This document shows, one piece after another, positions 2,073 through 61,000 of a DNA stretch of 64,000 nt. Every line of letters begins with the position of its first letter. Position 1 is the first letter of the stretch. The stretch comes from Cyanobacteria bacterium P01_F01_bin.150 (GTDB lineage: Bacteria; Cyanobacteriota; Cyanobacteriia; CAKZMO01): assembly GCA_039189765.1 (NCBI GenBank), contig JBCCYL010000024.1, positions 1-64,000 of the forward strand, written 5' to 3'. The notes beneath the pieces are model-generated. The model made no database searches. It had not been told where the DNA came from and saw nothing but the letters and a program-made list of their open reading frames with translations. The position numbers were made by a program, and so were the translations under genes.

Positions 2073-3644
2073 TTATGGACGGTTGATTTGGATAATTTCC
2101 GTTAGGATACTTTCCAATCCCCCATTCACGTTAATCCGTTCGATCTTATCGGCAATGCGCTCTAGTACCTCCAGCTCCTTTAACCGCAGAGCAACCGGAT
2201 TGCTTTCCATAACCTTGGCGGTGTTGAGCATGCTACGAGTGGCCGAAGTTTCCTCACGGCGACGAATCACGTTGGCCTGGGCCGCCTTCTCCGCTTCCAC
2301 TACCTGACACAGAATGGCCTTCATCTCACCGGGGAGAATAATATCCTTAACCCCGACCGATTCCACCTCAATTCCATACTCGGCAGTCTTCGAGAGAATG
2401 TAATCCGCCACACTAGAGTCGATCGCCCCCTTATCTTCCAAGAGGTCATCCAGCGATCGCGTCCCCACCGCCCCTCGCAGGGCAAACTGGAGTTCCTTAT
2501 ATAGAAAACCCTTGATATCCGCTAAGCCAGCCTTTGCCTTAACTGGATCAACAATGCGGTAGCCAGCGGTCAGATTCAAGCGCAGAGGCACCTTATCCTT
2601 TGAAAGAATTTCCTGACCGGATACATCCAGCGTTTGCAGACGTAGGTCTAGAACTTCAGTTTTGAGCGATCGCCCAAAAAGCCACCACACATGCCAACCT
2701 GGCTCCAGAGTCTCCTGTAGAGCCCCCTCGGAATAGAGCAAGCCCATATGCTGACTGGGTACTTCAGTAATATGCAGATGGGTATGGGCCAACTGGAAGA
2801 CTGCTGGCAACCCAGACACCAGTTCCTTCACCAATCGGGCTGGCAGCTTGGCGTCAGAGCTAAAGTTGATCACTTCCACTTCCACCCCACGCCAGAATAG
2901 CTGACGGCTGGTGGGCTGTAGAACCCCGATCACCTTTCCCTGGTAGCGGGCGATCGCCACTTCTTCTGCCCCCAAGGTCACGGCCTCACAGTACTCAGCT
3001 ACAAACTCAGGGTGCTGTTCCATTAACACGTCAGTGTTGGTAAAGCCAGGGATCGGCTTGGTGCGATCGTACAAGGTCACTCGAACCGTCTGACCATAGG
3101 TCCAGAACCCATATTCACCCGGCCCAAGAGGCCGCACAAAGTTATCTTGAATGTACAGCATGCCGATTTGGAACTCGGATACTCGCACAACTTTCAAGCC
3201 AGCCAAAGCGCTAGCGGCCTGATCCTTTACCTGTTCCACAAATGGGGTGGCCAGCTCTACGCTCTCATCCAGGTCAAAGCAATGGGCTTCCACATCAATA
3301 AATCCCCGCCAAAATAGGCGCAGTTGGTTGGGGGCGATCGCTTGCCACTGCTGTCCCACTCGAACCAGAGCCGCTTGGTTAAAGGCGGTCCGAACTACAA
3401 CAAATTGCTTATTAATCACATCAGCATGGGACTGCAACAATAACTCCACGTTATCGATGGTGGCTTTGGGAGTATTGAGATCAAAAATTTTTACGTTCCA
3501 GTGCCAGCCCATGCGGCGATGGGTGCCCGGCATAAGAACCTCTTGGAAATGACTGCGATAAAACAACATTCCCCGCTCGTTAGGCTTGATGTAAAACGTC
3601 TTGAATAGTTCGAACATAGCTCTTCTTCCTTGCAGCCGTGACAA
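2073..3644 (-). CDS. SPFH/band-7 (stomatin/prohibitin-like, slipin family) domain protein; alternative start at Met ~3617
   Basis: C-terminal half has SPFH hallmarks (..DIILPGEMKAILCQVVEAEKAAQANVIRRREETSATRSMLNTAKVM..NPVALRLKELEVLERIA..), long ORF with consistent codon usage. Confidence 0.75.
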   Translation of the reverse strand: MSRLQGRRAMFELFKTFYIKPNERGMLFYRSHFQEVLMPGTHRRMGWHWNVKIFDLNTPKATIDNVELLLQSHADVINKQFVVVRTAFNQAALVRVGQQWQAIAPNQLRLFWRGFIDVEAHCFDLDESVELATPFVEQVKDQAASALAGLKVVRVSEFQIGMLYIQDNFVRPLGPGEYGFWTYGQTVRVTLYDRTKPIPGFTNTDVLMEQHPEFVAEYCEAVTLGAEEVAIARYQGKVIGVLQPTSRQLFWRGVEVEVINFSSDAKLPARLVKELVSGLPAVFQLAHTHLHITEVPSQHMGLLYSEGALQETLEPGWHVWWLFGRSLKTEVLDLRLQTLDVSGQEILSKDKVPLRLNLTAGYRIVDPVKAKAGLADIKGFLYKELQFALRGAVGTRSLDDLLEDKGAIDSSVADYILSKTAEYGIEVESVGVKDIILPGEMKAILCQVVEAEKAAQANVIRRREETSATRSMLNTAKVMESNPVALRLKELEVLERIADKIERINVNGGLESILTEIIQINRP

Positions 3645-3790
3645 TTTTGGATTTTAGATTTTGGCTTTTGGCTGCGTTCCAGTTTTGAATAGTGACAGTT
3701 TGGGAGTTTGGGCGTTTGGGAGTTTGGGCGTTTTGAATTTTGAATTGGACTTTCTGCCTTCTGCCTTCTGCCTTCTACCTTCTGCCTTTT
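3645..3790. repeat. STRR-like tandem repeat array: (TTTTGGA/TTTTAGA)n, (GGGAGTTTGGGCGTTT)2, (TTTTGAA)2, (TGCCTTC)5; immediately 5' of SPFH start codon
   Basis: Direct reading of tandem units; same motif set recurs at 10345-10527, 11845-11895, 44351-44383 and inside CDS at 53014-53075. Confidence 0.85.
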
Positions 3791-4323
3791 TAAAGCTCTA
3801 CTGACGCTGGCATTTGCCGGGGTCTGTGCGGGCGATCGCCTGTACAGGAATGGATTAAGGCTCCCTTAGGGGCGGGCATGTCTTCTTAAGTTGCTCTGAT
3901 CAGATTGCTCTGACCAAAGTACTGTGGCAAGACATGTAAGATCGCCAAATATATTGTTCCGATTCTCCGTTGGAAAATAGGAAGAGATATACTCGATTCC
4001 AGTATCAAAAGCACTTCGCTAAAAGCGATGCGATGCGACTAGCTAAAAGCTACGCTACGCGATCGCGCTGGCCATTCCCTGGTGCTGTTTTCGCCTTGCT
4101 GTCCTGCATCTAGCGACTGTTTCCAGCGGTCAGATCCGGTTTAGTTTCGGCAAATTCAGCCCAATACCAGCACAGTAGAGCAGAGTGCGGAGTTGAACCG
4201 CATAGGATTTGTTTACCCTATTTACCAGTTGACGCTTGGAGAGCGCTGCTCTTGTAACCCCAGAGCGCGGGAGTACTTGTCCCTAACAAGTCGTCCTTAT
4301 TGCCCACAGGACTTGGGTAGCGT

Positions 4324-4399
4324 TGGCTAAACGTACAGGATTCGAACCTGCTACAGTCAGATTAACGGTCTGATGCTCTACCAATTGAGCTAACGTTTA
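4324..4399 (-). tRNA. tRNA-Asn (anticodon GTT), 76 nt with encoded CCA; unusual C at position 33
   Basis: Hand-folded cloverleaf: acceptor TAAACGT/ACGTTTA, D-stem GCTC/GAGC, anticodon stem TCAGA/TCTGA with loop CCGTTAA, T-arm GCAGG-TTCGAAT-CCTGT, discriminator G, CCA. Confidence 0.7.
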
Positions 4400-4402
4400 A
4401 GT

Positions 4403-4478
4403 TGGTACACGATGTAGGATTCGAACCTACGAATTCCGGATTTTAAGTCCAGTGCCTATTCCACTCGGCTAATCGCGT
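4403..4478 (-). tRNA. Non-canonical tRNA, 76 nt, anticodon UAA (Leu-decoding) but class-I architecture (5-nt variable loop), encoded CCA
   Basis: Hand-fold: acceptor ACGCGAT/ATCGTGT (one G-U), D-stem GCC/GGC, anticodon stem CTGGA/TCCGG (one U-G) with loop CTTAAAA, variable AATTC, T-arm GTAGG-TTCGAAT-CCTAC, discriminator A, CCA. Confidence 0.5.
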
Positions 4479-4646: not shown

Positions 4647-7600
4647 TCAGAGACCGTCACACAATCTCTTATCTTCGTCTCTAAGCTCAACCGGGTTATG
4701 GGCAACATGAAAGCGAAGCCAATCACAGCCATGAGCTACCATTGCATCCAAGCTAAGTGCCTTTAAATCCCAGAGTTTAATCGTCTTGTCTGAACTGCCG
4801 CTAATGAGGGTCTTGCCATTAGGACTGAAACTCACACTGGTGACCCAATCGTCATGGCCTATGAAGCTGCGGAGTTGCTGACCAGTCGTCACATCCCAGA
4901 GTTTGATTGTTTTATCCGCGCTGCCGCTAACGAGAGTCTTGCCATCGGCACTGAATCTGACACCCATGACCCAATTGTCATGACCTATAAAGTTGCGGAT
5001 TTCCTCTCCGGTCGTCACATCCCAGAGTTTGATCGTTTTGTCTGAACTGCCGCTAACGAGGGTCTTACCATCAGGACTGAAACTCACACTATTGATCCAA
5101 TCGTCATGACCTGTAAAGCTGCGGAGTTCCTTCCCGGTTGCCACATCCCAGAGTTTGATCGTCTTGTCCGTACTGCCGCTAATGAAGGTCTTACCATCGG
5201 CACTGAAACTCACACTATTAACCGACTCGTCATGGCCTATGAAGCCGCGAAGTTCCTCCCCGGTCGTCACATCCCAGAGTTTGATTGTTTTATCCGCGCT
5301 GCCGCTAACGAGAGTCTTGCCATCGGCACTGAAACTCACACTATTAACCGACTCGTCATGGCCTGTGAAGCTGCGGAGTTGCTCCCCAGTCTCCACATCC
5401 CAGAGGTTGATTGTCTTATCCGTACTGCCGCTAATGAGGGTCTTACCATCAGCACTGAAACTCACACTCATGACCCACAGGTCATGACCTGTAAAGCTAC
5501 GGAGTTCCTCCCCGGTCTCCACATCCCAGAGTTTGATCGTCTTGTCTGAACTGCTGCTAACGAAGGACTTGCCATCGGGACTGAAACTCACACTACTGAC
5601 CAACTGGTCATGACCTGTAAAGTTGTGGGGTTGCTCCCCAGTCTCCACATCCCAGAATTTGATTGTCTTGTCTAAACTGCTGCTAACAAGGGACTTGCCA
5701 TCGGGGCTAAAACTCACACTTATGACTGACTCGTTATGACCTGTGAAGCTACGGATTTCCTGCCCAGTCGCCACATCCCAGAGCTTGATCGTTTCGTCCG
5801 CACTGCCGCTAACAAGAGTCTGACCATCGGGGCTGAAACTGACCGTGACTGGCTCGTCATGACCTACAAAGCTGCGGAGTTGCTCCCCGGTCGCCACATC
5901 CCAGAGTTTGATCGTCTTGTCCGAACTTCCGCTAACGAGGGTCTGGCCATCAGGACTGAAACTCACACTAATGACCGCCTCATCATGACCTGTAAAGCTG
6001 CGGAGTTGCTCCCCAGTCGTCACATCCCAGAGTTTGATCATCGTGTCCGCACTGCCGCTAACGAGGGTCTGGCCATCAGAACTGAAACTGACACTACTGA
6101 ACGACTCGTCATGACCTGTGAAGCTGCGAAGTTGCTCCCCAGTGGCCACATCCCAAAGTTTGGCTGTCTTGTCCGCACTGCCGCTAACGAGGGTCTGGCC
6201 ATCAGGACTGAACCTGACACGCAAGACGTGCCTGTCATGGCCTGTGAAGCTGCGGAGTTCTTTCCCGGATTCCACATCCCAGAGTTTGATCGTCTTGTCC
6301 GCACTGCCGCTAACGAGGGTCTGGCCATCGGGGCTAAAACCGACACTCCAGACCCAATTGTCATGGCCTGTAAAGCTGTTGAGTTGCTCCCCGGTCACTA
6401 CATCCCAGAGTTTGACCGTCGTGTCATCACTGCCGCTAACGAGGGTCTGGCCATCGGGACTAAAACTGACACTCCTGACCCAACCGTCATGGCCTGTGAA
6501 GCTACGAACCTTATTACTCTTTAACATAACTTGCTGTAATGCATTCAGCCCCTCTGGTTGAGTAATTTGGTACTTCTGAAGAATAGTGCCTGCTCGAATG
6601 GCTTCCATCCACGCCTCAAAATCTTTACCTTCATTTAAAAGCGTTAATGAACCAAGCCCTGATGATCGCGCCTGGCTCAACTCGGCTTGTTTGATCGCTT
6701 TCTCCGCTCGTTTTAGTTGCTGTACCGCAACACCCCCACCTACCAATGCTAATACCAGCAACGATGCCAACCCCCCAATCACTAGCCGTTGCAGACGGAC
6801 CGATCGCTGCTGATTCATCTCCACCACCAACCGACTTGCTGTCACATACTCCCCCTGCAACGCCGTCGGACTCGGCTGCTTCTCCACTGCTCCCAACAAC
6901 CACTGCTCCGCCTCAGCCAAGTCACTCCCCCGCAGCAGCACATCCTCCCGTCGCCCCTTCTTATCCCACTCGATCGCCTTTACCAACAACTGCGTGTGAA
7001 ACCGCAAATGCTCCGGGTCCGTATCCAACGTCCGCAGCAGCTCCTTAAAATTGGTATCAAACTCCCCCTTATTCGCCGTAAAATCAATCCACTGCACCTT
7101 CGCCAACTCCGGATGCAAGTCCTTCGGATTCACCGGACGATGCAGCACCGTCACCATCCGCTTATTCAGCTTCGCCGCATACTCTACCTCATCAGCACAG
7201 TACGGAGACCTCACCGCCCGAGGCGACAGCACAAACAGAAAAAAATTCGACGTTTCAATTCCCTTGTAAATCTCCTGCTGAAAATCCGCCCCCGACGCAA
7301 TACTTTCCTGATCAAACCAGGTGCGCTTCCGCTGTCGTTGCAACGCATTATTTAACCGCCGGGCAAAATCTGAATCCGCCCGCGAATAGGAAATAAACAC
7401 ATCCGGAGCCACCGCCGCCGTCTGACTTTGACTCGCCTCAATAAAATCCTCCTGAATCTCCGTTGGCCCCTGCCCATCCTTCGCCTTCGCCACCTCCCGC
7501 CACGCCAGCGCATGTTGCAACTCATAGCCCTGAAGCAAAATACAGGGATTGCGCTGCTGCCGCTCCCACTTTAGCGCCTTGGTCAACAGCACCTTATGCT

Positions 7601-8717
7601 CCTTGTGATAGGTCGCATCCTGCTTTAACACCCGCAGCAGATCATCCTCATCCTGGAGATAATCCGCCTCCGTTTCATTGTCCGTCAGGTCAATATATTG
7701 GCGATTGCGCAGGAACACCGGAATCTCAGCCTCCTCCACCTGCCCCGCCAGCATAATAATCAGCCGCTTATTCAGTTGCAGCGATCGCTCCAATTCCATC
7801 TGACAATACTTCGACTTCAGCGAATGGGACGACATCAGCAACAGCACATTATCCGCCTGCTCTACCCCACGGGCGATCGCTCCCTCAAAATCATCCCCAT
7901 ACTCAATATCCGCCCGATAGCTCCAGGTAGTGATGCCGGAGCGCATAAGCGATCGCCTCACCGTCTCCGTCATCGCCCCATCTTCCTCCGCATGGGCCAA
8001 AAACACCTGGGTCATCAAGTTGTCGCCATTCTTGATGCTCTCGGTAATGTACTCATAATGCAAATCCGTCGGCCACAGAGGCGGCTGCTTATCCGCAAAC
8101 CGAACCGCCAGCCACTCCACCGCCTCTTGTTTATCCTCCCCAGTCAACAAGTAGCGGGTCTGCTTCTGATGTCGTTCCCACTCCAGTGCCTGATTCAGCA
8201 ACACCGTATGCTGATGCACATAGCCTTTTTCCAACTCCAGCAGCGCCAATATCTGCTGCAACGACTGCTCAAAATCATTAATCCCTTCCTTACACTGCAC
8301 CCAGTTAATTTTGCCGATTTCAGGATGCATATTTGTGTGGCAGGAATGCAGTCCCTCCGATTCATACTCAGCCCACTGGTCATCCGTGCCATCCAGATTG
8401 CGCTGCTGCCAGATCTCTTGGTCAATGTTCTCTACATGCAGCAGGGGAATAATCCGCTTTTTCCGCTTCAGCGCCAACTCAATTTCCAGTCGGCAATAGG
8501 CCGAATTGGTGGCATGGGGCGCAATGACAAACAGGAAATTATCCGCTTTTTCAATGCCATCATCAATTTGCTTTTGGTAATCTACCCCCAACGGAATATC
8601 TTCAAAATCAAACCAGACGGTGTAGCCCAACTCAACTAAGCGATCGTTCAGGTTCTTGGCAAAGTGCTTACTGTCGGCACGACCATAGGAAATAAAGACA
8701 TCTTGGAGAGGATTCAT
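4647..8717 (-). CDS. Giant multidomain protein: three tandem TIR domains (aa ~5-135, ~236-325, ~438-530), single TM helix (aa ~645-666), 14 WD40 repeats (two predicted 7-bladed propellers)
   Basis: TIR signatures DVFISYGRADS.. and DVFISYSRADSDFARRL.., divergent middle TIR VFLAHAEEDG..; each TIR followed by conserved H..LL..A.EWE...R..LL.G..L..A..WL module; hydrophobic LVIGGLASLLVLALVGGGVAV; 14x GHD..V.SV.FSPDG..L.SGS.D.TIKLWDV repeats. Confidence 0.85.
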   Translation of the reverse strand: MNPLQDVFISYGRADSKHFAKNLNDRLVELGYTVWFDFEDIPLGVDYQKQIDDGIEKADNFLFVIAPHATNSAYCRLEIELALKRKKRIIPLLHVENIDQEIWQQRNLDGTDDQWAEYESEGLHSCHTNMHPEIGKINWVQCKEGINDFEQSLQQILALLELEKGYVHQHTVLLNQALEWERHQKQTRYLLTGEDKQEAVEWLAVRFADKQPPLWPTDLHYEYITESIKNGDNLMTQVFLAHAEEDGAMTETVRRSLMRSGITTWSYRADIEYGDDFEGAIARGVEQADNVLLLMSSHSLKSKYCQMELERSLQLNKRLIIMLAGQVEEAEIPVFLRNRQYIDLTDNETEADYLQDEDDLLRVLKQDATYHKEHKVLLTKALKWERQQRNPCILLQGYELQHALAWREVAKAKDGQGPTEIQEDFIEASQSQTAAVAPDVFISYSRADSDFARRLNNALQRQRKRTWFDQESIASGADFQQEIYKGIETSNFFLFVLSPRAVRSPYCADEVEYAAKLNKRMVTVLHRPVNPKDLHPELAKVQWIDFTANKGEFDTNFKELLRTLDTDPEHLRFHTQLLVKAIEWDKKGRREDVLLRGSDLAEAEQWLLGAVEKQPSPTALQGEYVTASRLVVEMNQQRSVRLQRLVIGGLASLLVLALVGGGVAVQQLKRAEKAIKQAELSQARSSGLGSLTLLNEGKDFEAWMEAIRAGTILQKYQITQPEGLNALQQVMLKSNKVRSFTGHDGWVRSVSFSPDGQTLVSGSDDTTVKLWDVVTGEQLNSFTGHDNWVWSVGFSPDGQTLVSGSADKTIKLWDVESGKELRSFTGHDRHVLRVRFSPDGQTLVSGSADKTAKLWDVATGEQLRSFTGHDESFSSVSFSSDGQTLVSGSADTMIKLWDVTTGEQLRSFTGHDEAVISVSFSPDGQTLVSGSSDKTIKLWDVATGEQLRSFVGHDEPVTVSFSPDGQTLVSGSADETIKLWDVATGQEIRSFTGHNESVISVSFSPDGKSLVSSSLDKTIKFWDVETGEQPHNFTGHDQLVSSVSFSPDGKSFVSSSSDKTIKLWDVETGEELRSFTGHDLWVMSVSFSADGKTLISGSTDKTINLWDVETGEQLRSFTGHDESVNSVSFSADGKTLVSGSADKTIKLWDVTTGEELRGFIGHDESVNSVSFSADGKTFISGSTDKTIKLWDVATGKELRSFTGHDDWINSVSFSPDGKTLVSGSSDKTIKLWDVTTGEEIRNFIGHDNWVMGVRFSADGKTLVSGSADKTIKLWDVTTGQQLRSFIGHDDWVTSVSFSPNGKTLISGSSDKTIKLWDLKALSLDAMVAHGCDWLRFHVAHNPVELRDEDKRLCDGL

Positions 8718-10344: not shown

Positions 10345-10527
10345 AACGATTTTGGATTTTAGATTTTGATGGAGGAGTTGGGGAGTTAGGGCGTTTAAGG
10401 AGTTAGGGCGTTTAAGGAGTTAGGGCGTTTAAGGAGTTAGGGCGTTTAGGGAGTTTAAGGAGTTGGGAGTTGGATAGTCTGCCTTCTGCCTTCTGCCTTC
10501 TGCCTTCTGCCTTTTTTCCTTCTGCCT
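10345..10527. repeat. STRR-like tandem repeat array: (TTTTGGA/TTTTAGA)n, (GGAGTTAGGGCGTTTAA)4, (TGCCTTC)6; fills entire cupA-cupS intergenic space
   Basis: Direct reading; 17-mer repeated 4x, heptamer TGCCTTC 6x, ends at cupA stop codon and begins 7 nt after cupS ATG. Confidence 0.9.
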
Positions 10528-11835
10528 TTACCGATAGTCTTGGCTTTGAATATCCCTTAGCCGGGCTTCCGGACGTTTAAACCGATCGAGCTGAGTTTGA
10601 AAAAATTCGCGATTAGCCTGTAAGTGAGCTGGGTTTGGATCATCAAGGGGGTAAAGCAGGGCTTCTCGTAAGGCATGGATAACAGCAGAGGTGACGTTGT
10701 ACATGGAGCGCTGAAAGCTGACCCCCAGCTGAGTGATCATATCGTCTTCTCCTCGGCAATATTGCTTGTAATAGTCCACCAAGTAGGACGGCAGGAAGTG
10801 GAGCATATCTTGCATTAGCAATGTGGGTGGAATTCCTGCCGTCCCGACAGGAAAGAGATCGGCGTAAAGAATACCGTAGTGAAACTCTTCTTGATTGTTA
10901 GGAACCTGCTGGGCTTGAGCGTTATAGGATTTGGTGCCCCGGAAAGGGGATGTGCGGTAAAAAATGGCTTCAACATAGGGCAGCGCAGCTTCATAGAGCC
11001 ACATAAACCCTTTAGATTTTGGAATAATTTCGTAGCATTCGCCATCAATATAAGCGTGATGGTAAATAGGACGCCCGGACACAGCAAAGATGCCGTTCAC
11101 AAGAAAATCCATCGCTTCCGGAACAGTCTTTAAATTGCCCTCATCGTAAAGATCGGACATTTCGAAAAAGACGGCCGCCATCACCTCCCAGAACAAACCC
11201 AAGTTGGAATACTGAGATAGTTGCCGTACTTGTTCAATAAACATGTCAGGAAAAAGCTTATATAGTCCCAACATAACGGGATTGCTCTTGAAGTAGGCGC
11301 GAATGGCACGATCCGCGTTAGCCTTATATTCCTCAGTATCCAAGTAGGCATCAAACTTATTTACGGGAGCATACATGTGACGATGCCAAAGCATTGCCCT
11401 CATACAGGCCTCGGCAAATTCCATGTTGATGCGATCGTGATTCAAATGATGCAGCAGTCGAGGAAGGGTACGATTTGCACCTCCCTTCTTCATAAAGGCA
11501 AGCAGTTCAGGGTGCGCTTTTTCAGTGCCACGCCAAATTCTTAGGTCAGCATTGTCACCAGCATATTTGCTGGGGAGATCGAGATAGTCTTGGGAAATAA
11601 AGTACTTAAAAGCGGGAAGGGGATTGAGAAATACCTGTTCGGCAATGTAAAGCAAATCACGCCAGTAGAAATCCATTGGTACCGCATAGGCCTTATAGAT
11701 ACCAATAATTTGCATCAGGTTTTCAGGGGTATCCGGTAGCATGGACCCGCCTGCTTCCAGACGATGAATCACCTCAGCAAATTCATGATTTGCTGGGGGA
11801 AGGGCCGTAGAAGCAGGTGCGGTGGTAGTGGTCAT
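10528..11835 (-). CDS. cupA: CO2 hydration protein CupA/ChpY of the NDH-1MS high-affinity CO2 uptake complex
   Basis: ~435 aa, ChpX/ChpY family features, positioned immediately downstream of ndhD3 on the same strand as in canonical ndhF3-ndhD3-cupA-cupS operons. Confidence 0.8.
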   Translation of the reverse strand: MTTTTAPASTALPPANHEFAEVIHRLEAGGSMLPDTPENLMQIIGIYKAYAVPMDFYWRDLLYIAEQVFLNPLPAFKYFISQDYLDLPSKYAGDNADLRIWRGTEKAHPELLAFMKKGGANRTLPRLLHHLNHDRINMEFAEACMRAMLWHRHMYAPVNKFDAYLDTEEYKANADRAIRAYFKSNPVMLGLYKLFPDMFIEQVRQLSQYSNLGLFWEVMAAVFFEMSDLYDEGNLKTVPEAMDFLVNGIFAVSGRPIYHHAYIDGECYEIIPKSKGFMWLYEAALPYVEAIFYRTSPFRGTKSYNAQAQQVPNNQEEFHYGILYADLFPVGTAGIPPTLLMQDMLHFLPSYLVDYYKQYCRGEDDMITQLGVSFQRSMYNVTSAVIHALREALLYPLDDPNPAHLQANREFFQTQLDRFKRPEARLRDIQSQDYR

Positions 11836-11844
11836 AGTTCAGCA

Positions 11845-11895
11845 AGGGAGTTTGGGAGTTAGAGCGTTTGGGAGTTAAAGCGTTTGGGAGTTAGT
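11845..11895. repeat. STRR-like tandem repeats (GGGAGTTWGAGCGTTT)n in ndhD3-cupA spacer
   Basis: gggagtttgggagttagagcgtttgggagttaaagcgtttgggagttag. Confidence 0.85.
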
Positions 11896-11973
11896 TTGGC
11901 TAATAAACACGGCAGTGCTGTACTAAAGCTTAGCGTAGTGGTTGTTTATGAACAGTAAGGACCCTAATGTAGC

Positions 11974-28914: not shown

Positions 28915-28998
28915 CCAATTAACTTTGGGCTTAAGGTTTAAGCCGGGAAGAATTTAACGGGATACTGGGGCGCGAAGCGCCCCAGTATCCCGCCTTAA
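28915..28998. repeat. Copy 1 of ~80-nt structured interspersed repeat (GGGCTTAA..TTAACGGGA-[15-bp stem]-GAAG-[stem]-TCCCGCCTTAAAA..ACAAGCC)
   Basis: Nested hairpins ggcttaaggtttaagcc and gggatactggggcgcg aag cgccccagtatccc; near-identical framework at 55755-55845 with different stem sequence. Confidence 0.75.
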
Positions 28999-29209
28999 AA
29001 GACAAGCCTAACTTTGTCATTTATAGGCGAAAATTTAGATATAGATATCAAGTTATTTTTGTCACTTTTTATTCTGTTCTTTCTGTTAGACTCATGTTTG
29101 CTGATAGCGTCTTTTTATAAATTCCTGCAACGATAAATCTGTAAATATTTACAAAGCAGTCATTATTGTTATTACAGCAATCGATTTTATCTAAGAGATA
29201 TATCTCAAA

Positions 29210-30055
29210 ATGACTAAATTTAAAAATCAACCATGGAATTTGTTTAAGCGTAAATTTGTTAGCTTTACCAAAAAGAAAGTTAATCCAACCCCAAGAGTCG
29301 TCACTGGTATAAAAAATCTTAATACCTATTCTCTATTAAAGAGTTGTCATGGCGTTAACTATTATCTTTGGAATGGGAGCGAATTTAATCCTAATCAGCC
29401 AACCTTCATCGTTACCCATGGATGGCGGGCCAAAGGCGCTAAATCTGGAGTTTTCCAGAAATTATTGGCTGCGATTAAGGCGCGTGCTACCCATGCCAAC
29501 GTCATTCTGGTTGATTGGACAGAATATTCTACTTCTTTAAACTATACAACGGTTAAAAATAATACTCTAAAGGTTGGGGACTGGGTCAGAAATTTTTTAA
29601 TTGACCTAAAGATTAACCCCGCTACAACGACCTTAATCGGTCACAGTCTTGGTGCACATATATTGGGCAATGCTGGAGACGGATATAGAAAAGAGATCGG
29701 TCGTTCAATTAATACCATTATTGCCCTTGAACCCGCTGGCCCACTGTATAGCACAACCTGCAAAGGCCAACGGTTAGATGACGGTGATGCAGCCCACGTG
29801 GTTGCGCTTCACTCCACTGATTTTATCGGATACAAAGGAGCCATAGGCGACGTAGATATTTACCTTAATGACTGGTCTTACGACAGCCAATCCGGCTTAA
29901 ACGGTTTGTTGTCTGCTGGACTAAGGCATCTCTATCCTGTCTTAGTTTTGACCGATTTATTTGAAGGCAAAAGATTTAAACAAGGTGATAATTCATCATT
30001 TTCGCTGACTTGCCTTTATACTCGGTCCGGCAGTTCTGTCGTTAAGACCATCTAA
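29210..30055 (+). CDS. Pancreatic-lipase/phospholipase-A1-like alpha/beta hydrolase (GHSLGAH nucleophile elbow)
   Basis: Motifs ..PTFIVTHGW.. and ..LIGHSLGAHILGNAG.. typical of the pancreatic lipase-type lipase family; AT-rich codon usage unlike neighbours. Confidence 0.65.
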   Translation: MTKFKNQPWNLFKRKFVSFTKKKVNPTPRVVTGIKNLNTYSLLKSCHGVNYYLWNGSEFNPNQPTFIVTHGWRAKGAKSGVFQKLLAAIKARATHANVILVDWTEYSTSLNYTTVKNNTLKVGDWVRNFLIDLKINPATTTLIGHSLGAHILGNAGDGYRKEIGRSINTIIALEPAGPLYSTTCKGQRLDDGDAAHVVALHSTDFIGYKGAIGDVDIYLNDWSYDSQSGLNGLLSAGLRHLYPVLVLTDLFEGKRFKQGDNSSFSLTCLYTRSGSSVVKTI

Positions 30056-32305: not shown

Positions 32306-32392
32306 AATTCAAGATGGGAAAGGTTTAACGAAAGGTTGGATCACCAAGTATCTTCTAAGAAACACGACGTGTTTCTTGCATTTTTAACGTGT

Positions 32393-32432
32393 TGTGTCGG
32401 TGAGGCCGACACAACACGTTAAAGGCTCCTAA
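32393..32432. repeat. Perfect 18-bp-stem hairpin (ttaacgtgttgtgtcgg tgag gccgacacaacacgttaa) downstream of desaturase; member of TTAACG-flanked hairpin family or terminator
   Basis: Direct reading of inverted repeat; flanks TTAACG/CGTTAA as in repeats at 28950, 51350, 55790. Confidence 0.6.
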
Positions 32433-44350: not shown

Positions 44351-44383
44351 GATTTTGGATTTTGGATTTTGGATTTTGGATTG
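44351..44383. repeat. Heptamer tandem repeat (TTTTGGA)x4.5 immediately 5' of GT4 start codon
   Basis: gattttggattttggattttggattttggattg; on mRNA strand reads (UCCAAAA)n just upstream of AAGGAG SD and AUG. Confidence 0.9.
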
Positions 44384-51312: not shown

Positions 51313-51329
51313 TCTTTTTTCAAGAATCA

Positions 51330-51395
51330 ACGGTTTCGTTTTAAGGCGAAACAGAATTGACGGTATTGTGGGCGCGTCGCGCCCACAATACCCGC
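51330..51395. repeat. Hairpin repeat (copy 3 of TTRACGG-stem-loop-stem-CCGCCTAAA family) in convergent intergenic region; may also act as bidirectional terminator
   Basis: gtttcgttttaaggcgaaac small hairpin followed by ggtattgtgggcgcg tcg cgcccacaatacc perfect 15-bp stem. Confidence 0.65.
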
Positions 51396-51427
51396 CTAAA
51401 TTTGATATCCGAAATCAACCCAAAGTG

Positions 51428-52041: not shown

Positions 52042-53472
52042 CTAAACTTTTTTGAATCGTTCTTTTGCCGCTTGAAACGCTTCAGTCATCGCCTGTTGAA
52101 TGCGATCGGGATCGGGCTTTTTTCCTCCCATTACATCCCCAAAGTACACACAAGCGCCTTCACCCAACGCCCAAGTGTAGGCTGCGGCCCACGATGCTGC
52201 AACTACGCTGCCAAAGCCAGGAATAAACTTAATCAGTTCTCGACCGATGGCCTGGGCTAGAAATCCACCGGCGATCGCGCTTACAATTCCCCCCGCCTGG
52301 GACGTCGAAATTTTCTGACCGTAGAGCTTACCCAACAGTCCCACCATCGACACCTGGAGCGCCGTCAAAACGGGCATAGTTGCAAAGGGCAGCGGCACTG
52401 CCGCCAAGGTGGCCGCCATTGTTGCAAAAGCCAACATATAACGACGTCCCACTTCCCGATATACGGACCCCAACTGCTCATTAGCCTGCTTACTTGCATC
52501 AGCATCCAATAGTTGACGAATCGTTCGCGCCTCCGCCTCTGGTAACAGCTCCGCCAGCGTATCCCGCAGCGCTTCCAATCCATAAAATACAGGACTATAC
52601 CCATCCTCCTCCAGAGTAAAATCAATCAATATTGCCCGATCCCAAAGGCCATCAAATGCCTCTTTCACAGATTCAAAGGCACGATTGACGTCTTCCATCA
52701 TTGGAGGGTAGTCGGGATGATTTTCAACGTCACTGGCATACAGCTCATGGACACAAGTAACCACCAGAAGACAGGGAATAGCTGGAGAACCCATCGACTC
52801 TGCGCCCTGGAAATATCGTACCTGCTTCACAATGTCCCTTAACGACGCAACGGCAAAATCATTAATCTTCACCGTCAAAATCAGCACCCTCGCCTGCTGC
52901 TTCTCTTTCACCCCACCCTCTAAATTTACATCAGCAAGACCAGAGTTATTGTCCGTCTGAACAACGGTGTTGGGTTTCCTACCGTCAACCCAACCTACGC
53001 CCTCATTCTTCCTCCCCAACGCCCCAACTCCCCAACTCCCCAACTCCTCAACTCCCCAACCCTCTACCAACTCCTCCACCCAACTTTCCGTATCCTGAGC
53101 TACATCCCCCAACCCAACTGTGTCCGTAAAAATAAGCAGAGGAAGCTCTGCGGAAGGATAGGCATACCGCTCCGTATTCTGAGTATGGGGCCGAAACCCC
53201 TGACCAACGATGTCCGCAGATACGCCAGTCAGCCCTCGAACGATAGAGCTTTTACCAGCCTGGGGTTTACCAATTAAGATGGCTTCTGTAGTGGGTAACT
53301 GTCCTCGTAGGCTCTCTAAAATTTCAGCAATCTGTTTATCGTCCACATCTAGCCACCGTGAGGATTTTCGTGCTAGCCAGGCAGATAGTTCTTTAGGAAA
53401 AGATGCAGGATTGAGCTTTTCAAGATTTAGGTGCTTTAGGTATTGGGACGTTTGCTGCCAGAAGTCGGTCAT
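52042..53472 (-). CDS. P-loop GTPase with C-terminal DUF697 membrane-associated domain (YcjF/YfjD-like), carrying in-frame STRR-like repeat insertion
   Basis: G1 GKPQAGKSSIVRGLTG, G3 ..FTDTVGLGD..; C-terminal hydrophobic DUF697-like region; (CCCCAACT)n repeat at 53014-53075 encodes WGVEELGSWGVGALG. Confidence 0.65.
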   Translation of the reverse strand: MTDFWQQTSQYLKHLNLEKLNPASFPKELSAWLARKSSRWLDVDDKQIAEILESLRGQLPTTEAILIGKPQAGKSSIVRGLTGVSADIVGQGFRPHTQNTERYAYPSAELPLLIFTDTVGLGDVAQDTESWVEELVEGWGVEELGSWGVGALGRKNEGVGWVDGRKPNTVVQTDNNSGLADVNLEGGVKEKQQARVLILTVKINDFAVASLRDIVKQVRYFQGAESMGSPAIPCLLVVTCVHELYASDVENHPDYPPMMEDVNRAFESVKEAFDGLWDRAILIDFTLEEDGYSPVFYGLEALRDTLAELLPEAEARTIRQLLDADASKQANEQLGSVYREVGRRYMLAFATMAATLAAVPLPFATMPVLTALQVSMVGLLGKLYGQKISTSQAGGIVSAIAGGFLAQAIGRELIKFIPGFGSVVAASWAAAYTWALGEGACVYFGDVMGGKKPDPDRIQQAMTEAFQAAKERFKKV

Positions 53473-53684: not shown

Positions 53685-54422
53685 ATGTATCAGCCTTTTC
53701 GTGAGCATTTAGAAACTGAGATATTTACTCGATTTGACGACCTTCAAGCTCGTCCTATTCCTCCTGGATTAGAGTCGAACGTTAGGAGTCATGGACGCCA
53801 CCCTGCGACGATTCAGAGCTGGTGTTATCAGTGCGGTCCTTTGCGAAAAATTCGTTACACCTACATTGATGCAGGTCCTGCGGCTCAGATATTTAACAGC
53901 GTCATTTATCCCGATCATCGCTACGATTTGCCATTCTTGGGATTAGACTTTCTGTCATTTGGCAGCGTTAAAAATCTTGTAGTTCTCGATTTTCAGCCCT
54001 TATTTCAAGATGAAGATTATCAAGAAAAGTATATTCATCCTCTGAGGGCTTTGCATGCGAAGTATCCAGATCTAGCTCAAGATCTGGAAATGAAGTACTA
54101 CGATGCAAACCAGTATTTCTCTAAGTGCCTGCTGTTTGCTAAAACCGATCCGGAAACCATTAAAACTAGGCTGTTTGAGGCCTTTAAAGACTATCTCAAC
54201 TTGTATTGGGAGTTGCTAGATAATGCTGAGCCATTTACTGATGCAGCGGACATCGAACGTATTGCTCAGGCTCAAAGAGACTATGATCAGTACAGTGCCG
54301 ATCGTGATCCTGCGTCAGGGTTATTCAAGAGCTATTTTGGTCACGAGTGGGCTGAGAAGTTTCTTTACGAATTCCTGTTCGAAGATGCTGAACCCGCTGT
54401 AGTGGGAGCGACTCGCACATGA
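53685..54422 (+). CDS. pebA: 15,16-dihydrobiliverdin:ferredoxin oxidoreductase
   Basis: FDBR family; ..[55 protein letters not shown].. ; 4-bp ATGA overlap with following FDBR paralog. Confidence 0.8.
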
Positions 54423-55192
54423 CTTTGTATCAATCATTCTTAGACTATGCGATCGCCCAGCTAGAAGAACACCTTGATATTCAACCCTATCCTATTCCGG
54501 AAGGCTTTGAGACAAAGTCTGCCATTGTCGGTAAAGGAAAGCATCAAAACGAGGTGCAAACCGATAGCTATGGTTCTTGTTCTCCAAAGCTTCGCCAGAT
54601 AAGGGCGGCCCATGTTAAGGGAGGGGGTGCGTTTCAGGTCCTTAATTTTGTGATTTTTCCCCACATTAACTACGATTTGCCATTCTTTGGGGCTGATTTA
54701 GTGACCTTGCCTTCAGGCCATTTGATTGCCATTGATATGCAGCCCCTGTTTCGGGATGAGCCTGAGTATCAGGCGAAGTATGCCGATCCAGTGATGCCCA
54801 TTTTTGAAAAGCATCAGCAAAATTTGCCTTGGGGTGGTGATTTTCCTGATGAAGCACAGCAGTTTTTCTCTCCGGCTTTTCTATGGACTCGTCCCAAGGA
54901 AACATCCGATGTAGAGACTCACGTGTTTGATGCGTTCAAAGACTATCTCCACGCCTACATTAATTTTGTTAAAAAGGCTGAACCTGTAACGGATGAAGCG
55001 AAGCTTCAGGAGATTGAAGCGGCTCAGTTACGTTACCTTCGGTATCGCGCAGAAAAGGATCCTGCCAGGGGGATGTTGACTCGCTTTTACGGCCCAGAAT
55101 GGACCGAAGAATATATTCACGGATTTTTGTTTGACCTAGAGCAAAACCTTGACCAAGAGCGACAATTAGCTAGGGCTGTGGTATTGGCTTGA
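54419..55192 (+). CDS. pebB: Phycoerythrobilin:ferredoxin oxidoreductase
   Basis: Second FDBR paralog (257 aa) ..[49 protein letters not shown].. ; canonical pebA-pebB order. Confidence 0.8.
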
Positions 55193-55255: not shown

Positions 55256-55669
55256 CTAATCACTCGTCGCATGGGCTTTGAGATCATCCAAGGAGACATA
55301 TTCCAAAGCGCTTGCATGGGTAGCATCAAGAGCAACGTTTGGAGCCCTTTTAGCATCCATCGCTTCTTTCCAGCGAGAGGCACATAAACACCAGCGATCG
55401 CCCGGCTTTAATCCTGGAAATCGATACATTGGTCTAGGCGTACTTAGATCATTGCCTCGCGCCTTAGTAAATTCTAGAAACTCTTCAGTCATTTCAGCGC
55501 ACACCACATGTGCTCCCATGTCTCCAGCTCCAGTACGGCACATGCCGTCTCGATAAAATCCCGTCATCGGATCGGTGCAGCAGCATTGTAGGGGGCCGCC
55601 CAAAACATTGGTGGCAACAGGCGGATTGTTTGCCTTGACGGGGTTTCCAGATATATCGTTATTGGCCAT
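55256..55669 (-). CDS. DUF2237 family protein (Cys-rich, uncharacterised)
   Basis: ..TGFYRDG.C.TG..D.G.H.VCA.MT.EFL.F....GNDLSTP.....FPGLKPGDRWCLCA.RW.EA pattern. Confidence 0.6.
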   Translation of the reverse strand: MANNDISGNPVKANNPPVATNVLGGPLQCCCTDPMTGFYRDGMCRTGAGDMGAHVVCAEMTEEFLEFTKARGNDLSTPRPMYRFPGLKPGDRWCLCASRWKEAMDAKRAPNVALDATHASALEYVSLDDLKAHATSD

Positions 55670-55754: not shown

Positions 55755-55845
55755 ATATATGAAGGGGGCTTAAAACTTAAACCGGGAAGGACTAACGGGA
55801 AATTGGGGGCGCGAAGCGCCCCCAATTTCCCGCCTTAAAATACAA
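55755..55845. repeat. Copy 2 of ~80-nt structured interspersed repeat (same framework as 28915-28998, different but self-complementary stem)
   Basis: gggcttaaaacttaaaccgggaaggactaacgggaaattgggggcgcg aag cgcccccaatttcccgccttaaaatacaagccc. Confidence 0.75.
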
Positions 55846-55927
55846 GCCCTTATTTTTCACAGGGGTTAAAATACGAGAGGTTAACGTTCATATTCTTAAC
55901 CGCATTCTTAAATTACAGCATAAAGTA

Positions 55928-56899
55928 ATGAGTCCATCTGCCACTCAGACGTCTTCTATCTCTGCTCCAGACGCATCCAAGTCTGGCTCTGGGGCTGTAT
56001 TAAATTCAGGATCGGTTGACGCGATCGCATCTTCTTCCAAGCCAGACATGTCATCTAAATCTGTCGATAATCTGTCTGATTCTCTAGAGCATAAATTGGA
56101 TACCCTTCGGCAGCTATTTTTAGACATGGAACAAGCTTTAATTGCTTACTCTGGAGGTGTAGACAGTACGCTGGTGGCTAAGGTCGCCTATGATGTGCTG
56201 GGCGATCGCGCCGTTGCCATCACCGCAGATTCTCCCTCTTTGCTACCGGATGATTTAGAAGATGCCCGCATTCAGGCTGCGGCCATCGGTATTGCCCATG
56301 AAGTTGTGGCCACCCATGAGATGGATAATCCGGCCTACACGTCAAACCCAGTAAACCGCTGTTACTTTTGCAAGAGCGAACTACATGACACCCTAAAACC
56401 ACTGGCCCTGGAACGGGGATTTCCCTATGTGGTAGACGGAGTCAATGCGGATGACCTACAGGACTACCGCCCAGGGATTCAAGCCGCGAAGGAACGGGGA
56501 GCGCGATCGCTCTTGGCCGAAGTGGGCGTTAGCAAGAAGGAAGTCCGTCAGCTATCCAAAGCGCTAGGATTAAGTTGGTGGGATAAGCCTGCTCAGCCCT
56601 GTTTAAGCTCACGTTTCCCCTATGGTGAGGAAATTACCGTGGAGAAATTGCGGCGAGTGGGTCAAGCAGAACGGTATTTAAGAAAGTTGGGATTTACGGA
56701 TATTCGTGTCCGCTCAGATGGTGATACGGCTCGAATTGAGGTTTTACCGGATAAAATTCAGTCTTTTGTAGCCACAACTGATTTGCCAGCACTAGTGGCA
56801 AAGCTACAAGACTACGGCTTCTTTTATGTCACTCTGGATTTGGAGGGCTATCAAAGCGGTAAGTTAAACCGTGTGCTAGCCAGCCATATTCATAAATAA
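55928..56899 (+). CDS. LarE-like PP-loop ATP pyrophosphatase (TIGR00268 family), with Ser-rich N-terminal extension
   Basis: PP-loop ..LIAYSGGVDSTLVA.., ..NPVNRCYFCK.. and ..PCLSSRFPYGEEIT.. conserved in LarE/ThiI-like sulfur transferases. Confidence 0.75.
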   Translation: MSPSATQTSSISAPDASKSGSGAVLNSGSVDAIASSSKPDMSSKSVDNLSDSLEHKLDTLRQLFLDMEQALIAYSGGVDSTLVAKVAYDVLGDRAVAITADSPSLLPDDLEDARIQAAAIGIAHEVVATHEMDNPAYTSNPVNRCYFCKSELHDTLKPLALERGFPYVVDGVNADDLQDYRPGIQAAKERGARSLLAEVGVSKKEVRQLSKALGLSWWDKPAQPCLSSRFPYGEEITVEKLRRVGQAERYLRKLGFTDIRVRSDGDTARIEVLPDKIQSFVATTDLPALVAKLQDYGFFYVTLDLEGYQSGKLNRVLASHIHK

Positions 56900-58074: not shown

Positions 58075-61000
58075 CTATAGTTCTTGGACAGCCCCTAGCT
58101 GTTCCAATGTCGATATTTCAGACTCCGTCAGTCCTTCAATATCCGCAATATTCATGCCATCATAGGGTTCTCGGTTTTTGATGATCTTCAGACATTTGCC
58201 TGTTTCGACGGACCATAGACGAATGGTTTTATCATCGCTGCCGCTAGCCAGTGTTTTGCCATCAGGGCTAAAATCAACGGCCCATACCGTATTTCCGTGG
58301 CCATTCAGGACATATACTCGCTTCCCCGTCTGCATATTCCATAATCGGACCGTACGATCTGCGCTACCGCTGGCTATCCACTGGCCATCTGGACTGACCG
58401 CAACAGAAATCACCCAATTTTCATGCCCTTTGAAAATTTGCTCACAAGCTCCTGTACAGGTATCCCAACGCCTGATGGTTTGGTCCATGCTGCTGCTGAC
58501 TAAAAAGTCTCCTTGCGGAGAAAACGCAATGCACCAGATGCCGCTGCTATGGCCTTTCCAGGTCGCTACACAGTCATAGGTCTCTAGGTCCCAAAGCTTA
58601 ATGGTGCGATCATAAGATCCGCTGGCCAATAGATTTTTTTCAGGATGAAAGGCAACTGAGCTGACCCAATGCCGATGCCCCGTTAGCGTTTGCTTACAGT
58701 TGCCCGTACGTAGGGTCCACAGCTTGATACTCTGATCAGCACTGCCGCTGGCTAAAAGGGTCGTTGCTGGATTGAAGGCAACAGACCAGACCGATTTTGT
58801 ATGGCCTGAAAAGCGGCGGTGCGTTCTTTTTTTACTATTATTGGGTTGCTTATTGAGTCGCCATAGGTGTACTCCGCCATCTTCATTGCCACTGGCTAAC
58901 TGCTGTCCATTTGGGCTAAACGCAACAGTCCAGATAACTTCTTGCACCTCTTTTAGGGTCTCTGAGGTGTTCTCCGCAGCCATATTCCACAGGTGCAAGC
59001 TGCGATCGCCCTGACCACTAGCCAACTGACGACCATCCGGACTATACGCCAGGGTCCACACCCAGTTGCCGCTGCCCTGCAATGCCTTTAGACACTGGCC
59101 ACTGCCCCGGTCCCAGAGCCGCAGGGTGCGATCTTCGCTGCCGCTGGTCAAATAGTCGCCGTCTGGACTAAAGGCCACGGACCAGACCCAATTACTATGT
59201 CCGGTTAGCACCCTCAGACACTGGCGTGTTTTCACATCCCACAAGCGCACCGTCTGATCCGCACTGCCACTGGCCAGCAGGGTGCCATCGGGGCTAAAGG
59301 TCACCATCCAAATCCAGTTACTATGCCCCTCTAAGGTATGCAAACACTGTCCCGACGGCATTTCCCACAGGCGAATGGTTTGATCGGCGCTACCGCTGGC
59401 CAACTGGCTGCCATCAGGGCTAAAGGCAACCGACCATACGCCATGCTTATGCTCTGCTAGGGTCTGCAAACACTCCCCCGTAAGTGATGACCAGAGTCTA
59501 ATCGTGCAGTCGGCGCTGCCGCTGGCCAAGTAGTCTCCGTTGGGTGCAAAGGCAACCGACCAAATGCCGTGCCCGTGTCCGCCTAAAATCTGCCGACACT
59601 CCCCTGTCTCAATGTCCCACAAGCGTACAGTACGATCAGCGCTGCCGCTGGCTAGCACGGTGCCATCAGGGCTAAAGGCGACGGACATCACCCAGTTTTG
59701 ATGTCCGTCAAAGGTCTGTAAGCACTCCCCTGTCTCCACATCCCAAAGGCGTACGGTGCGATCAGCGCTGGCGCTGGCCAGCAAGATGCCATCGGGGCTA
59801 AACGCAACGGAGCACACCCAGTTCTGATGCCCTTCAAAGGTGGCGATGTGGGAGCCAATATCGCCAGTGGCTCCTGGTGATGATGCAGGGGTTAGGTGCG
59901 ATCGCCACAGCCAGATTTCGCCGTTTGTATCCCCCGTTGCCAGTAAATTATCTTCCGTTCTAAACGTGATGGCGCGAATGCTGCCAAAAGGCTGATTAAA
60001 CAATGAATGGGTCAGATCAGAGCCAGAAAAGTTGACGTTGTGCAGCGTCAGTCCCCGCAGTGAGGTTTGGCGAATGGTGAGGTTAGAAAAGTCGTAGCCC
60101 TTTAGATCGACCCCCAGATGGTGCAAAAGGGTCAGGACATTGCCGCCTAGATAGCTGCGATCGCGCGTTGGCAGCGATTGCACCGATTCCAGGCAATCAG
60201 TCAGGGTTGAGGCTAAGGCGTTTATTGACGACCATTCTGTCTGTAGCTGCGACCGAATGGGGCCTAAGATAAGGCGAATTTGCGCCTGGTAGATGTAGTC
60301 ACTGCTATTTGCTTTCACCAAACCATGGGACCGCAGTCGTTTAGGTGTTTGGCTCCGAATCTCCTCACACACTTGCTCGATCAGCTCACCGGTAAAGTAA
60401 TCCATAATGACCGCCTGCTGAGTGATGCGAGAGCCACTTTTTTCCAGCAACGAACGCCGCTCCAGCGAGTCTATGGCCTGCAATAGCTTGTTTAGCGGCA
60501 CGGTTTCTACCATATCGGTCTGTAGCGATCGCCACACCACAGGCTCTCGACGAATCGCTAGCCAGTACATAATGTCTTGTTCCAGCGTCGTTAAGCGCTT
60601 CATCTGTCGCGCTAGCAGTTGCCTAATATCGCCAAAAATAAACAGATCCTGCTGTGCTAATTCCAAAAAAGCAGAAAGGCTGCCATCGAAATAATCCCTA
60701 ACCGCTGCGGCAATAATCTTAAGCGCCAGAGGATTGCCACCATAGACGTCAATTAGCTGATTCCATTCCGCCTCGGTTCCTGAAAATGAACGATTCACTT
60801 GGTCCGTGGCCTTGATTAGCGCCTGCCCCGCCGTAATCGAAAGCCCCGAAAGCTGAAAGCTGCGGATTGGCGATGTATCGATCGCCTGAATCGAGATTTC
60901 CTTGGGTAGCTCACGGGAGGTCAGCAAAATGCTGCTGCTGTGGTCGGTTTCACTCAGGGTTTTTAGCAGTTGACCATAGTCTTCATAGCCTGGAAGGTAA

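Follow-up and report, generated by a model that had tools for sequence, protein, structure and literature searches.

Several MITE families have been described in cyanobacteria; a review names Nezha and Muzha of Anabaena/Nostoc, the MaeMITEs of Microcystis, and the Anabaena MITEs, with lengths of 130–435 bp (PMC3184786). The repeat family analyzed here resembles these elements in that it is small, non-coding, and mainly intergenic and has terminal inverted repeats, flanking target repeats, and a stable predicted fold. With a length of 81–82 bp, it is much shorter than the named families. Its centre is an independent perfect palindrome, not just the pairing of the two ends, and at the left end the inner repeat motif occurs once more, in direct orientation. 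Nezha has the partner insertion sequence ISNpu3; no partner was found for the present element in the window or the fetched loci. The class itself is not new, as MITEs are common in cyanobacteria; the family, which is unusually small, seems to be an undescribed one within this ordinary kind of mobile DNA.

REPINs, which are also present in cyanobacteria, share the overall design of the present element: a length of ~80–100 nt, a pair of conserved blocks in inverted orientation, and a long hairpin with compensatory changes across it (PMC3116915). The REP end tags GTAG/CGTC, which define the two large REP superfamilies (PMC3733652), are absent from copies 1 and 2. Far fewer copies were found than is the case for REPINs, and there is no RAYT gene in the window (the whole 64-kb stretch of DNA that was analyzed). 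Moreover, the present element is flanked by 8-bp duplications, and REPINs are not known to have such duplications. Another group of very small mobile repeats, SDR1–8, is said to have been described by Elhai et al. in Genome Research in 2008 as small dispersed repeats of Nostoc punctiforme. The SDRs are reportedly 21–27 nt long and often embedded in other repeats, and a movement through RNA intermediates is said to have been proposed for them; some of them reportedly share a predicted hairpin with compensatory changes. The present element is likewise a very small mobile repeat, the SDRs reportedly being those of filamentous cyanobacteria; in a comparison by description only, it differs from them in its length of 81 bp, its terminal inverted repeats, and its 8-bp duplication. 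The Correia/NEMIS elements of Neisseria and the ERIC/RUP-type enterobacterial and pneumococcal MITEs are also listed in the above review (PMC3184786). They are short palindromic mobile repeats like the present one, with lengths of about 100–150 bp, fold into hairpins in transcripts, and can alter the expression of neighbors, but their sequences and hosts are different. The target duplication generally described for Correia elements is TA, in contrast to the 8 bp seen here.

Copies in the window and in other genomes

The window is part of a 77.7-kb contig of the MAG Cyanobacteria bacterium P01_F01_bin.150. Its gene content consists of ordinary chromosomal genes, and the nearest named homologues of its DUF2237 protein are found in Leptolyngbyaceae MAGs (80–84% identity). 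No transposase was found among the 41 ORFs of the window, and no RAYT or TnpA-like gene is located within its 64 kb.

A covariance model (R1) was trained on copy 1 and four copies from other genomes, with copy 2 left out, and was run unfiltered over both strands of the window. Copy 1 is a complete 81-bp element (GGCTT...AAGCC) at 28928–29008 of the forward strand and scored 104.6 bits (E = 2.5e-20), a value that is partly by construction because copy 1 is one of the five training sequences of R1. Copy 2, a complete 82-bp element at 55767–55848 of the forward strand, was outside the training set and scored 73.7 bits (E = 1e-13). Copy 3 (51332–51410, forward strand) scored 31.2 bits (E = 1.5e-4), with the model match covering 51333–51410; it contains the core with one or two mismatches, and its predicted fold has the same layout as the family, i.e. 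a small hairpin, AGAATTGACGG, a 15-bp stem, and CCCGCCTAAA. Copies 1 and 2 are solid copies, and copy 3 is a divergent relative. A further hairpin at 32359–32427 of the forward strand scored 22.8 bits (E about 0.01) and is a borderline family member, being possibly a very distant relative or unrelated. It consists of a small hairpin, TTTAACG, a 12-bp stem, and CGTTAAA, lies between convergent genes, and has neither the GGCTT/AAGCC ends nor a clear duplication. Nothing else in the window scored above 16.5 bits, apart from reverse-strand matches to the same palindromes. Far fewer occurrences of the core GGGCGCGAAGCGCCC are found in shuffles than in the window, and this is also true of the 3′ block CCCGCCTTAAAANACAAGCC.

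These matches of R1 to copies 1, 2, and 3 bear out the family that the initial annotation had recognized and for which it had suggested a covariance-model check. The two copies that it had placed at 28915–28998 and 55755–55845 are both real, but those bounds are off by about 10 nt from the true ones given above. Their shared framework also stands: GGCTTAA..TTAAGCC, GGGAAG, TAACGGGA, the long stem, a GAA loop, and TCCCGCCTTAAAA.ACAAGCC. The copy that had been regarded as related at about 51330–51395 corresponds to copy 3 and is real but divergent. As for the hairpin that had been included at 32393–32432, the TTAACG/CGTTAA flanks are present, but its membership is no better than borderline at the above score and with its location between convergent genes.

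When a 21-base pattern with the stem left free was searched among representative genomes of 185,579 species, seven stretches were matched, and four of them are true copies: L001 and L002 in the MAG CAYXJG01, and L004 and L007 in Cyanobacteria bacterium P01_E01_bin.6 (GCA_039194035.1). Both are cyanobacterial MAGs other than that of the window. The copies of the window itself are missing from these matches, and therefore its source MAG is outside that collection or masked. Look-ups of the flanking proteins showed that the sister strain P01_A01_bin.37 (GCA_039033975.1) has both copies at orthologous loci; the strain pair P01_E01_bin.6/P01_A01_bin.37 is ~99% identical in both spacers, with the element at both sites tested. 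The family is common to at least three poorly sampled cyanobacterial lineages that are known only from MAGs. Its dispersal amounts to two canonical copies and one divergent copy in the 64-kb window and to two copies in each of the two other MAGs. The copy number looks low, which counts against a MITE, with four true copies retrieved by the strict 21-base pattern from the 185,579 species genomes. Copies within one genome are 79–89% identical and are no closer than copies between genomes, so the family looks old or exchanged between lineages, not recently amplified; the absence of a visible recent burst also speaks against a MITE.

Searches of other sequence collections gave no further members. 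A BLASTN search of 72,556 plasmids with the element had no match at an E value of 0.01; at E 10, chance matches of ~20 nt were all that appeared. Of 19 matches to a 20-base pattern in metagenomes, none is a family member (two are unrelated reverse-strand terminators), and scans of viral contigs with the core pattern and the terminal-repeat pattern gave chance matches only. The open six-frame peptides of six copies, concatenated, matched nothing in a set of 5.8 billion proteins at E values up to 10. With Rfam, only two tRNAs were detected in the window at gathering thresholds, and only chance matches to microRNA-type hairpins, far under their thresholds, appeared at E values up to 10. A text search of the literature for the element motifs returned one irrelevant primer match only.

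Element architecture and insertion footprints

The similarity between copies starts at GGCTT and ends at AAGCC across six independent insertions. All copies open with GGCTT and close with AAGCC, except for L001, which closes with AAGCT. The two ends form imperfect terminal inverted repeats of ~21 bp (GGCTTnnnnTTTAAGsCGGGA), and 15–18 of 24–26 aligned positions match in all eight copies. In copy 1, the left repeat (GGCTTAAGGTTTAAGCCGGGA) is located at 28928–28948 of the forward strand (element positions 1–21), where 16 of 24 aligned positions are the reverse complement of the right end, and the right repeat (TCCCGCCTTAAAAGACAAGCC) is located at 28988–29008 (positions 61–81), as defined by the inverted-repeat alignment and the over-representation of the 3′ block. 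The first 17 nt of the left repeat (positions 1–17) are predicted to form a small hairpin, GGCTTAA/TTAAGCC. The inner motif TTTAA-CGGGA occurs a third time inside the element, at 28953–28962 (positions 26–35), where the sequence reads TTTAACGGGA; this internal occurrence is in direct orientation to the left end and forms the base of the long stem. It is invariant in the alignment of five full copies, and copy 2 has one T fewer (TAACGGGA). No solitary terminal inverted repeat, in addition to those of the copies, was found in the window or the fetched loci. An autonomous partner was likewise not found in the window or the fetched loci, a point against a MITE.

The long hairpin of copy 1 at 28959–28991 of the forward strand (positions 32–64) is G+C-rich and perfect, with 15 bp and a GAA loop; the DNA fold energy is −29 kcal/mol (z = −8.0), and the hairpin is also supported by covariation. 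Counting the closing C-G pair at 28958/28992, the stem has 16 bp. In the predicted fold, the palindrome is extended by this C-G pair and then by TTTAA/TTAAA across a CC bulge. The corresponding perfect hairpin of copy 2 at 55797–55831 of the forward strand, supported by the fold, the R1 alignment, and covariation, has 16 bp and a GAA loop, or 17 bp with the closing C-G pair at 55796/55832. About 45 nt of conserved sequence are located outside the stem, and the unpaired blocks GGGAAG, TTTAAC, and GCCTTAAAA are conserved across three genomes. The element is non-coding, with stops in most frames and a longest open stretch of 27 codons.

Copy 1 is flanked by an 8-bp target-site duplication. The 8-mer TAACTTTG at 28920–28927 is identical in all eight positions to that at 29009–29016, and both abut the element ends. 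L002 also has identical flanks (left TAGAATTG, right TAGAATTG; 8/8), and L001 has the left flank CTCTTTTA and the right flank CCCTTTTA (7/8). Thus, an 8-bp flanking repeat at 8/8 or 7/8 is present in three of the six independent insertions. The duplicated 8-mers differ by site and are mostly A+T-rich. The chance rate, as estimated from 8-mers 81 nt apart within the window, is 1.4e-4 for 8/8 and 8.3e-4 for at least 7/8; accordingly, among six insertions, two perfect pairs would arise by chance with a P of about 3e-7, and three pairs matching at 7/8 or more with a P of about 1e-8. The TTAA target-site duplications that had been suggested initially did not hold up, as the duplication found is 8 bp long and variable in sequence. 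The flanks of copy 3, GAATCAAC on the left (51324–51331) and GAAATCAAC on the right (51411–51419), match at eight of nine positions with one indel (an extra A) and are probably a decayed 8-bp duplication, weaker than that of copy 1 since a 1-nt indel is needed. The flank pattern is the signature of insertion by staggered target cleavage, not of a conserved gene or terminator. The empty-site junction to be expected is ...CCAATTAACTTTGTCATTTATAGG... for copy 1 and ...GTCTTAGAATTGATATTTTT... for L002.

The other three of the six canonical copies (copy 2, L004, and L007) have no recognizable 8-bp duplication, and at L004 only 5 bp are repeated (...TTTCG on the left and TTTCG... on the right). No clean empty site was recovered at the loci of copies 1 and 2 or in the sister-strain pair. 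Both observations count against a MITE.

Every copy is intergenic, and the neighbors are unrelated, with seven different neighbor sets in mixed orientations; the settings are sense, antisense, divergent, and convergent. Copy 1 is located between an RND pump gene (AcrB) and a lipase–CMAS–desaturase operon (lipase, 29210–30055), both in the same direction. Copy 2 lies between the divergent genes for DUF2237 (55256–55669, reverse strand) and a PP-loop ATPase-like protein (55928–56899, forward strand), 80 nt upstream of the latter. Copy 3 is situated between convergent genes, the response regulator gene ending at 51312 and the GNAT gene at 51428. Among the copies elsewhere, L001 lies beside the ArsA and GNAT genes and is antisense to both, L002 is upstream of a small hypothetical gene, L004 is between a CP43–PsaL fusion gene and a phycobilisome linker gene, 46 nt upstream of the linker start, and L007 is between convergent genes for a methyltransferase and a Na/Ca exchanger. 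Copies 1 and 2, L002, and L004 are each upstream of a gene in the same sense. In a scan, neither the element nor its immediate flanks showed a promoter or terminator consensus.

The divergent DUF2237/PP-loop arrangement is kept in three relatives (L044, L047, and L048), whose DUF2237 proteins are 85–87% identical to that of the window (the PP-loop ATPase is 82% identical, L044 only). Copy 2 is absent from these three orthologous spacers of 138–243 nt. The spacers align with the window over about 75 nt beside the PP-loop gene and are too diverged for a precise junction. An apparent left junction of copy 2 shared with L044, GTCCC.T.TATG.AGGG, was judged to be a spurious alignment because the block abuts the DUF2237 start codon in the relatives but is 76 nt away from it in the window. 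In the search for empty sites, contig L050 ended short of the site. The lipase beside copy 1 has no close relative, and the best match (75% identity) is in a different synteny.

Folding and covariation of the central palindrome

When the copies are folded as RNA, the z-scores relative to shuffled controls are −4.8 to −6.5; when they are folded as DNA, the range is −5.7 to −8.0. Covariation was analyzed in a model-guided alignment of eight copies, with column shuffles (500) and slid partners as the controls. In this alignment, 94% of cells are paired, and five pairs change on both sides. The covariation score of 0.144 compares with 0.070 ± 0.014 in the column shuffles, none of which (0/500) reaches 0.144, and with at most 0.043 when the partners are slid. 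Four of the both-sided pair changes are in the long stem (A:T/T:A, T:A/A:T, C:G/T:A, and G:C/A:T). Across the eight copies, the long stem has no one-sided standard-pair variant such as G-U, and three of its pairs depart solely by unpaired cells. The unpaired cells of the G+C-rich palindrome occur only near the apex, as C.A in L001 and L004 and as A.C in L007 and L033. The long stem shows genuine covariation.

Relative to copy 1, the long stem of copy 2 has three base pairs substituted on both sides and one G:C pair inserted, through an extra G on the 5′ arm and an extra C on the 3′ arm. The initial annotation was correct in that the two stems differ in sequence and are each perfectly self-complementary; the loop is GAA, and the stems have 16 bp (copy 1) and 17 bp (copy 2) with the closing C-G pair. 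The conclusion drawn there, that compensatory change indicates selection on structure, is only plausible, although the covariation is confirmed, because hairpin-templated correction fits equally well. Hairpin-templated correction of quasi-palindromes (template-switch mutagenesis) yields paired insertions and transversion pairs without intermediates. The stem pattern fits either selection on the hairpin or self-correction of the palindrome, and the data favor neither. A DNA palindrome can stay perfect without selection, and thus the covariation does not separate an RNA element from a DNA palindrome.

Proposed origin of the repeat and alternative explanations

We consider the repeat to be most likely a MITE, that is, an 81–82-bp non-coding, non-autonomous DNA transposon mobilized in trans by a DDE transposase whose cuts would be staggered by 8 bp. 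This reading is favored because of the 8-bp duplications at sharp ends, the ~21-bp inverted repeats, the unrelated contexts, and the absence of copy 2 from three orthologous loci. The proposed mechanism would be as follows. A DDE-type transposase encoded elsewhere would bind the TTTAAGsCGGGA motifs at both ends, cut the target with an 8-bp stagger, and insert the element, and repair of the gaps would create the 8-bp duplication. Insertion-sequence families with 8-bp duplications include ISL3, IS6, IS66, IS256, and IS1595. The central palindrome would stay perfectly paired along the lineages that give new copies, either because the hairpin or cruciform may help mobilization or be tolerated by the host, or because mismatches in the palindrome may be erased by hairpin-templated repair or replication. 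The initial annotation had left the choice between an RNA element and a MITE whose transposition would require the structure. The MITE is supported by the duplications, the inverted repeats, and the contexts, while the RNA element gains nothing from the analysis (no match in Rfam, no neighboring gene in common, and no conservation at orthologous sites). A stronger version, in which the central hairpin is a required signal for an 8-bp-duplicating transposase needing a folded palindrome, or is kept as a portable RNA module (stabilizer or insulator), appears unlikely to us. If it were true, selection and not passive correction would lie behind the paired insertion and the substitutions on both sides; a hairpin required by an 8-bp-duplicating transposase would combine features of DDE-type MITEs with those of hairpin-dependent REPIN-like elements.

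The kept stem pairing would be explained directly if the repeat were a REPIN-like or IS200/IS605-like hairpin element, whose folded single-stranded hairpin is recognized by a tyrosine (HUH) transposase such as RAYT, and the long stem without one-sided variants of the G-U type is as expected of a DNA-level structure. However, 8-bp duplications abut the element ends, and HUH single-strand transposition is not known to make a target-site duplication. On the surface, the layout is like that of a REP doublet, in that two conserved blocks in inverted orientation accompany a strong hairpin, and compensatory hairpin changes are common in REPINs, which have been reported in Nostoc punctiforme (PMC3116915). 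On the other hand, the GTAG/CGTC tags are absent beside the palindromes of copies 1 and 2 (copy 3 has GACG next to the stem), the window contains no RAYT or TnpA-like gene, and a population of REPINs would be expected to have many more copies than were found. We regard such an element as very unlikely. Just as improbable in our estimation is a structured RNA, either non-coding or regulating in cis (for example, a leader of the riboswitch kind or a gene for a small RNA); its stems would be kept by selection for RNA folding, and the copies would be paralogous RNA genes instead of mobile DNA. The predicted structure is strong and statistically supported by both-sided changes, the unpaired blocks are conserved in three genomes, and four copies lie upstream of a gene in the same sense; in addition, on a minus-strand transcript, each of the three one-sided changes in the stems would give a G-U pair, which is not significant (about 1 in 8). 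Nevertheless, Rfam gave no match at either gathering or permissive thresholds, the downstream genes are unrelated, the orientation to the neighbors is inconsistent, and copy 2 is missing from three orthologous leaders. Both the 8-bp duplications and the terminal inverted repeats are typical of inserted DNA and not of RNA genes, and neither a promoter nor a terminator consensus accompanies the element.

The location of copy 3, the hairpin at 32359–32427, and L007 between convergent genes would suit ordinary transcription-terminator or mRNA-stabilizing hairpins that are alike by convergence or local duplication, and these genomes are rich in long perfect terminator hairpins that score weakly with R1. 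Nevertheless, a T-tract is missing after the stem on either strand (GCCTTAAAA on the forward strand and GTTAAATTC on the reverse strand), and the scan calls no terminator. Copy 2 is between divergent gene starts, and L004 is only 46 nt upstream of a start codon. Such hairpins would also leave the ~45 nt of conserved non-stem sequence, the defined ends, and the 8-bp duplications unexplained, and this explanation is extremely improbable. The earlier statement that the family is not simply terminators is therefore upheld by the divergent setting of copy 2 and by the T-tract, which is present in none of the copies.

Several other identities were considered and rejected. A riboswitch or leader was dismissed on the ground that the copies share no gene. 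An integron attC site was rejected as well: the RYYYAAC-like ATTTAAC is present, but a GTTRRRY partner, an array, and an integrase are not. Ends of the Tn7/CAST type or Tn3 type do not agree with the flanks, since these elements duplicate 5 bp, compared with 8 bp here.

The copies in promoter or leader regions, such as those of the PP-loop ATPase-like and phycobilisome linker genes, could change expression. The family is also a compact test case for the perfect internal palindromes of mobile repeats, in which selection on a folded intermediate can be set against hairpin-templated correction. In annotation, a practical benefit would be that such hairpins are no longer mistaken for terminators or genes of small RNAs and are marked as sites at which assemblies break. 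One transposase alone was seen in the same sample, and it is of the IS630 type, a family that duplicates TA and not 8 bp, which is a point against a MITE.

Strain differences and assembly at the element hairpin

The element is present at both of the sites at which intergenic spacers were compared between the cyanobacterial MAGs P01_E01_bin.6 and P01_A01_bin.37 (L004:3276-3357 versus L037:3098-3179, and L034:4198-4277 versus L033:7107-7185). In these spacers, the two strains are ~99% identical, and the differences between them are concentrated in the element. In one spacer, three of the five differences fall inside a 6-nt stretch around which the apex of the hairpin is formed (GCGCTCAGCGC versus GCGCGGAGCAC), and in the other, two of the four are located in the small 5' hairpin of the element. 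Two more strain differences sit in palindromes unrelated to the element. This pattern could be due to exchange between copies, instability of the apex, or errors made at hairpins during assembly. One Logan contig (L038:1-37) has its beginning exactly within the element's long hairpin, suggesting that the palindrome breaks short-read assemblies.

Weak model matches and the c2 site in element-free relatives

Other long perfect hairpins in these genomes (L033:5783-5856 and L033:2963-3037), among them a bidirectional terminator (A8-stem-T8), also score weakly with the covariance model of the element. Because such hairpins behave in this manner, weak matches, such as window 32359-32427, should be treated with caution. 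At the c2 site, the 3' end of the window copy (55840-55848) reads AAAATACAAGCC, and the same place in the element-free spacers of the relatives L044, L047, and L048 reads AAAAAACAGCC(AAGGA). This correspondence is probably a matter of chance, but it could also represent a target that resembles the element end, or a remnant.

Tandem repeats in the window

Two very large minus-strand ORFs of the window (1356 and 1233 aa), at 4647-8717 and 58075-61776, contain long arrays of 126-nt (42-codon) tandem repeats at 4717-6531 and 58172-59827, respectively. Judging from their period and conserved blocks, the repeats of both ORFs look like the WD40 type. The adjoining genes of tRNA-Asn(GTT) and tRNA-Leu(TAA) (4324-4478, minus strand) lie immediately beside the first of these ORFs. 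Short tandem arrays with 7-8-nt units (AGTTTGGG, CTTCTGC, ATTTTGG, and CTCCCCAA) were found across several spacers (3644-3791, 10349-10530, 11833-11908, and 44352-44379), and one array (53012-53067) is inside an ORF. They are similar to the short tandemly repeated sequences of cyanobacteria.

Pigment-related and transposase genes

Two adjoining genes of ferredoxin-dependent bilin reductases (window 53685-55192), a pebA/pebB-like pair, suggest that the host is a phycoerythrin-containing cyanobacterium. On other contigs, a CP43/IsiA-like chlorophyll-binding protein fused to a PsaL domain is encoded at L004:3664-5226 (minus strand) and L037:1295-2791, and the neighbours of the fusion gene encode another CP43-like protein and a phycobilisome rod-core linker. 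An IS630-type transposase gene (HTH_32 and DDE_3 domains; L031:69-1337), on a contig from the sample that also yielded the source MAG, adjoins a paralogue of the lipase gene that lies next to c1 in the window.
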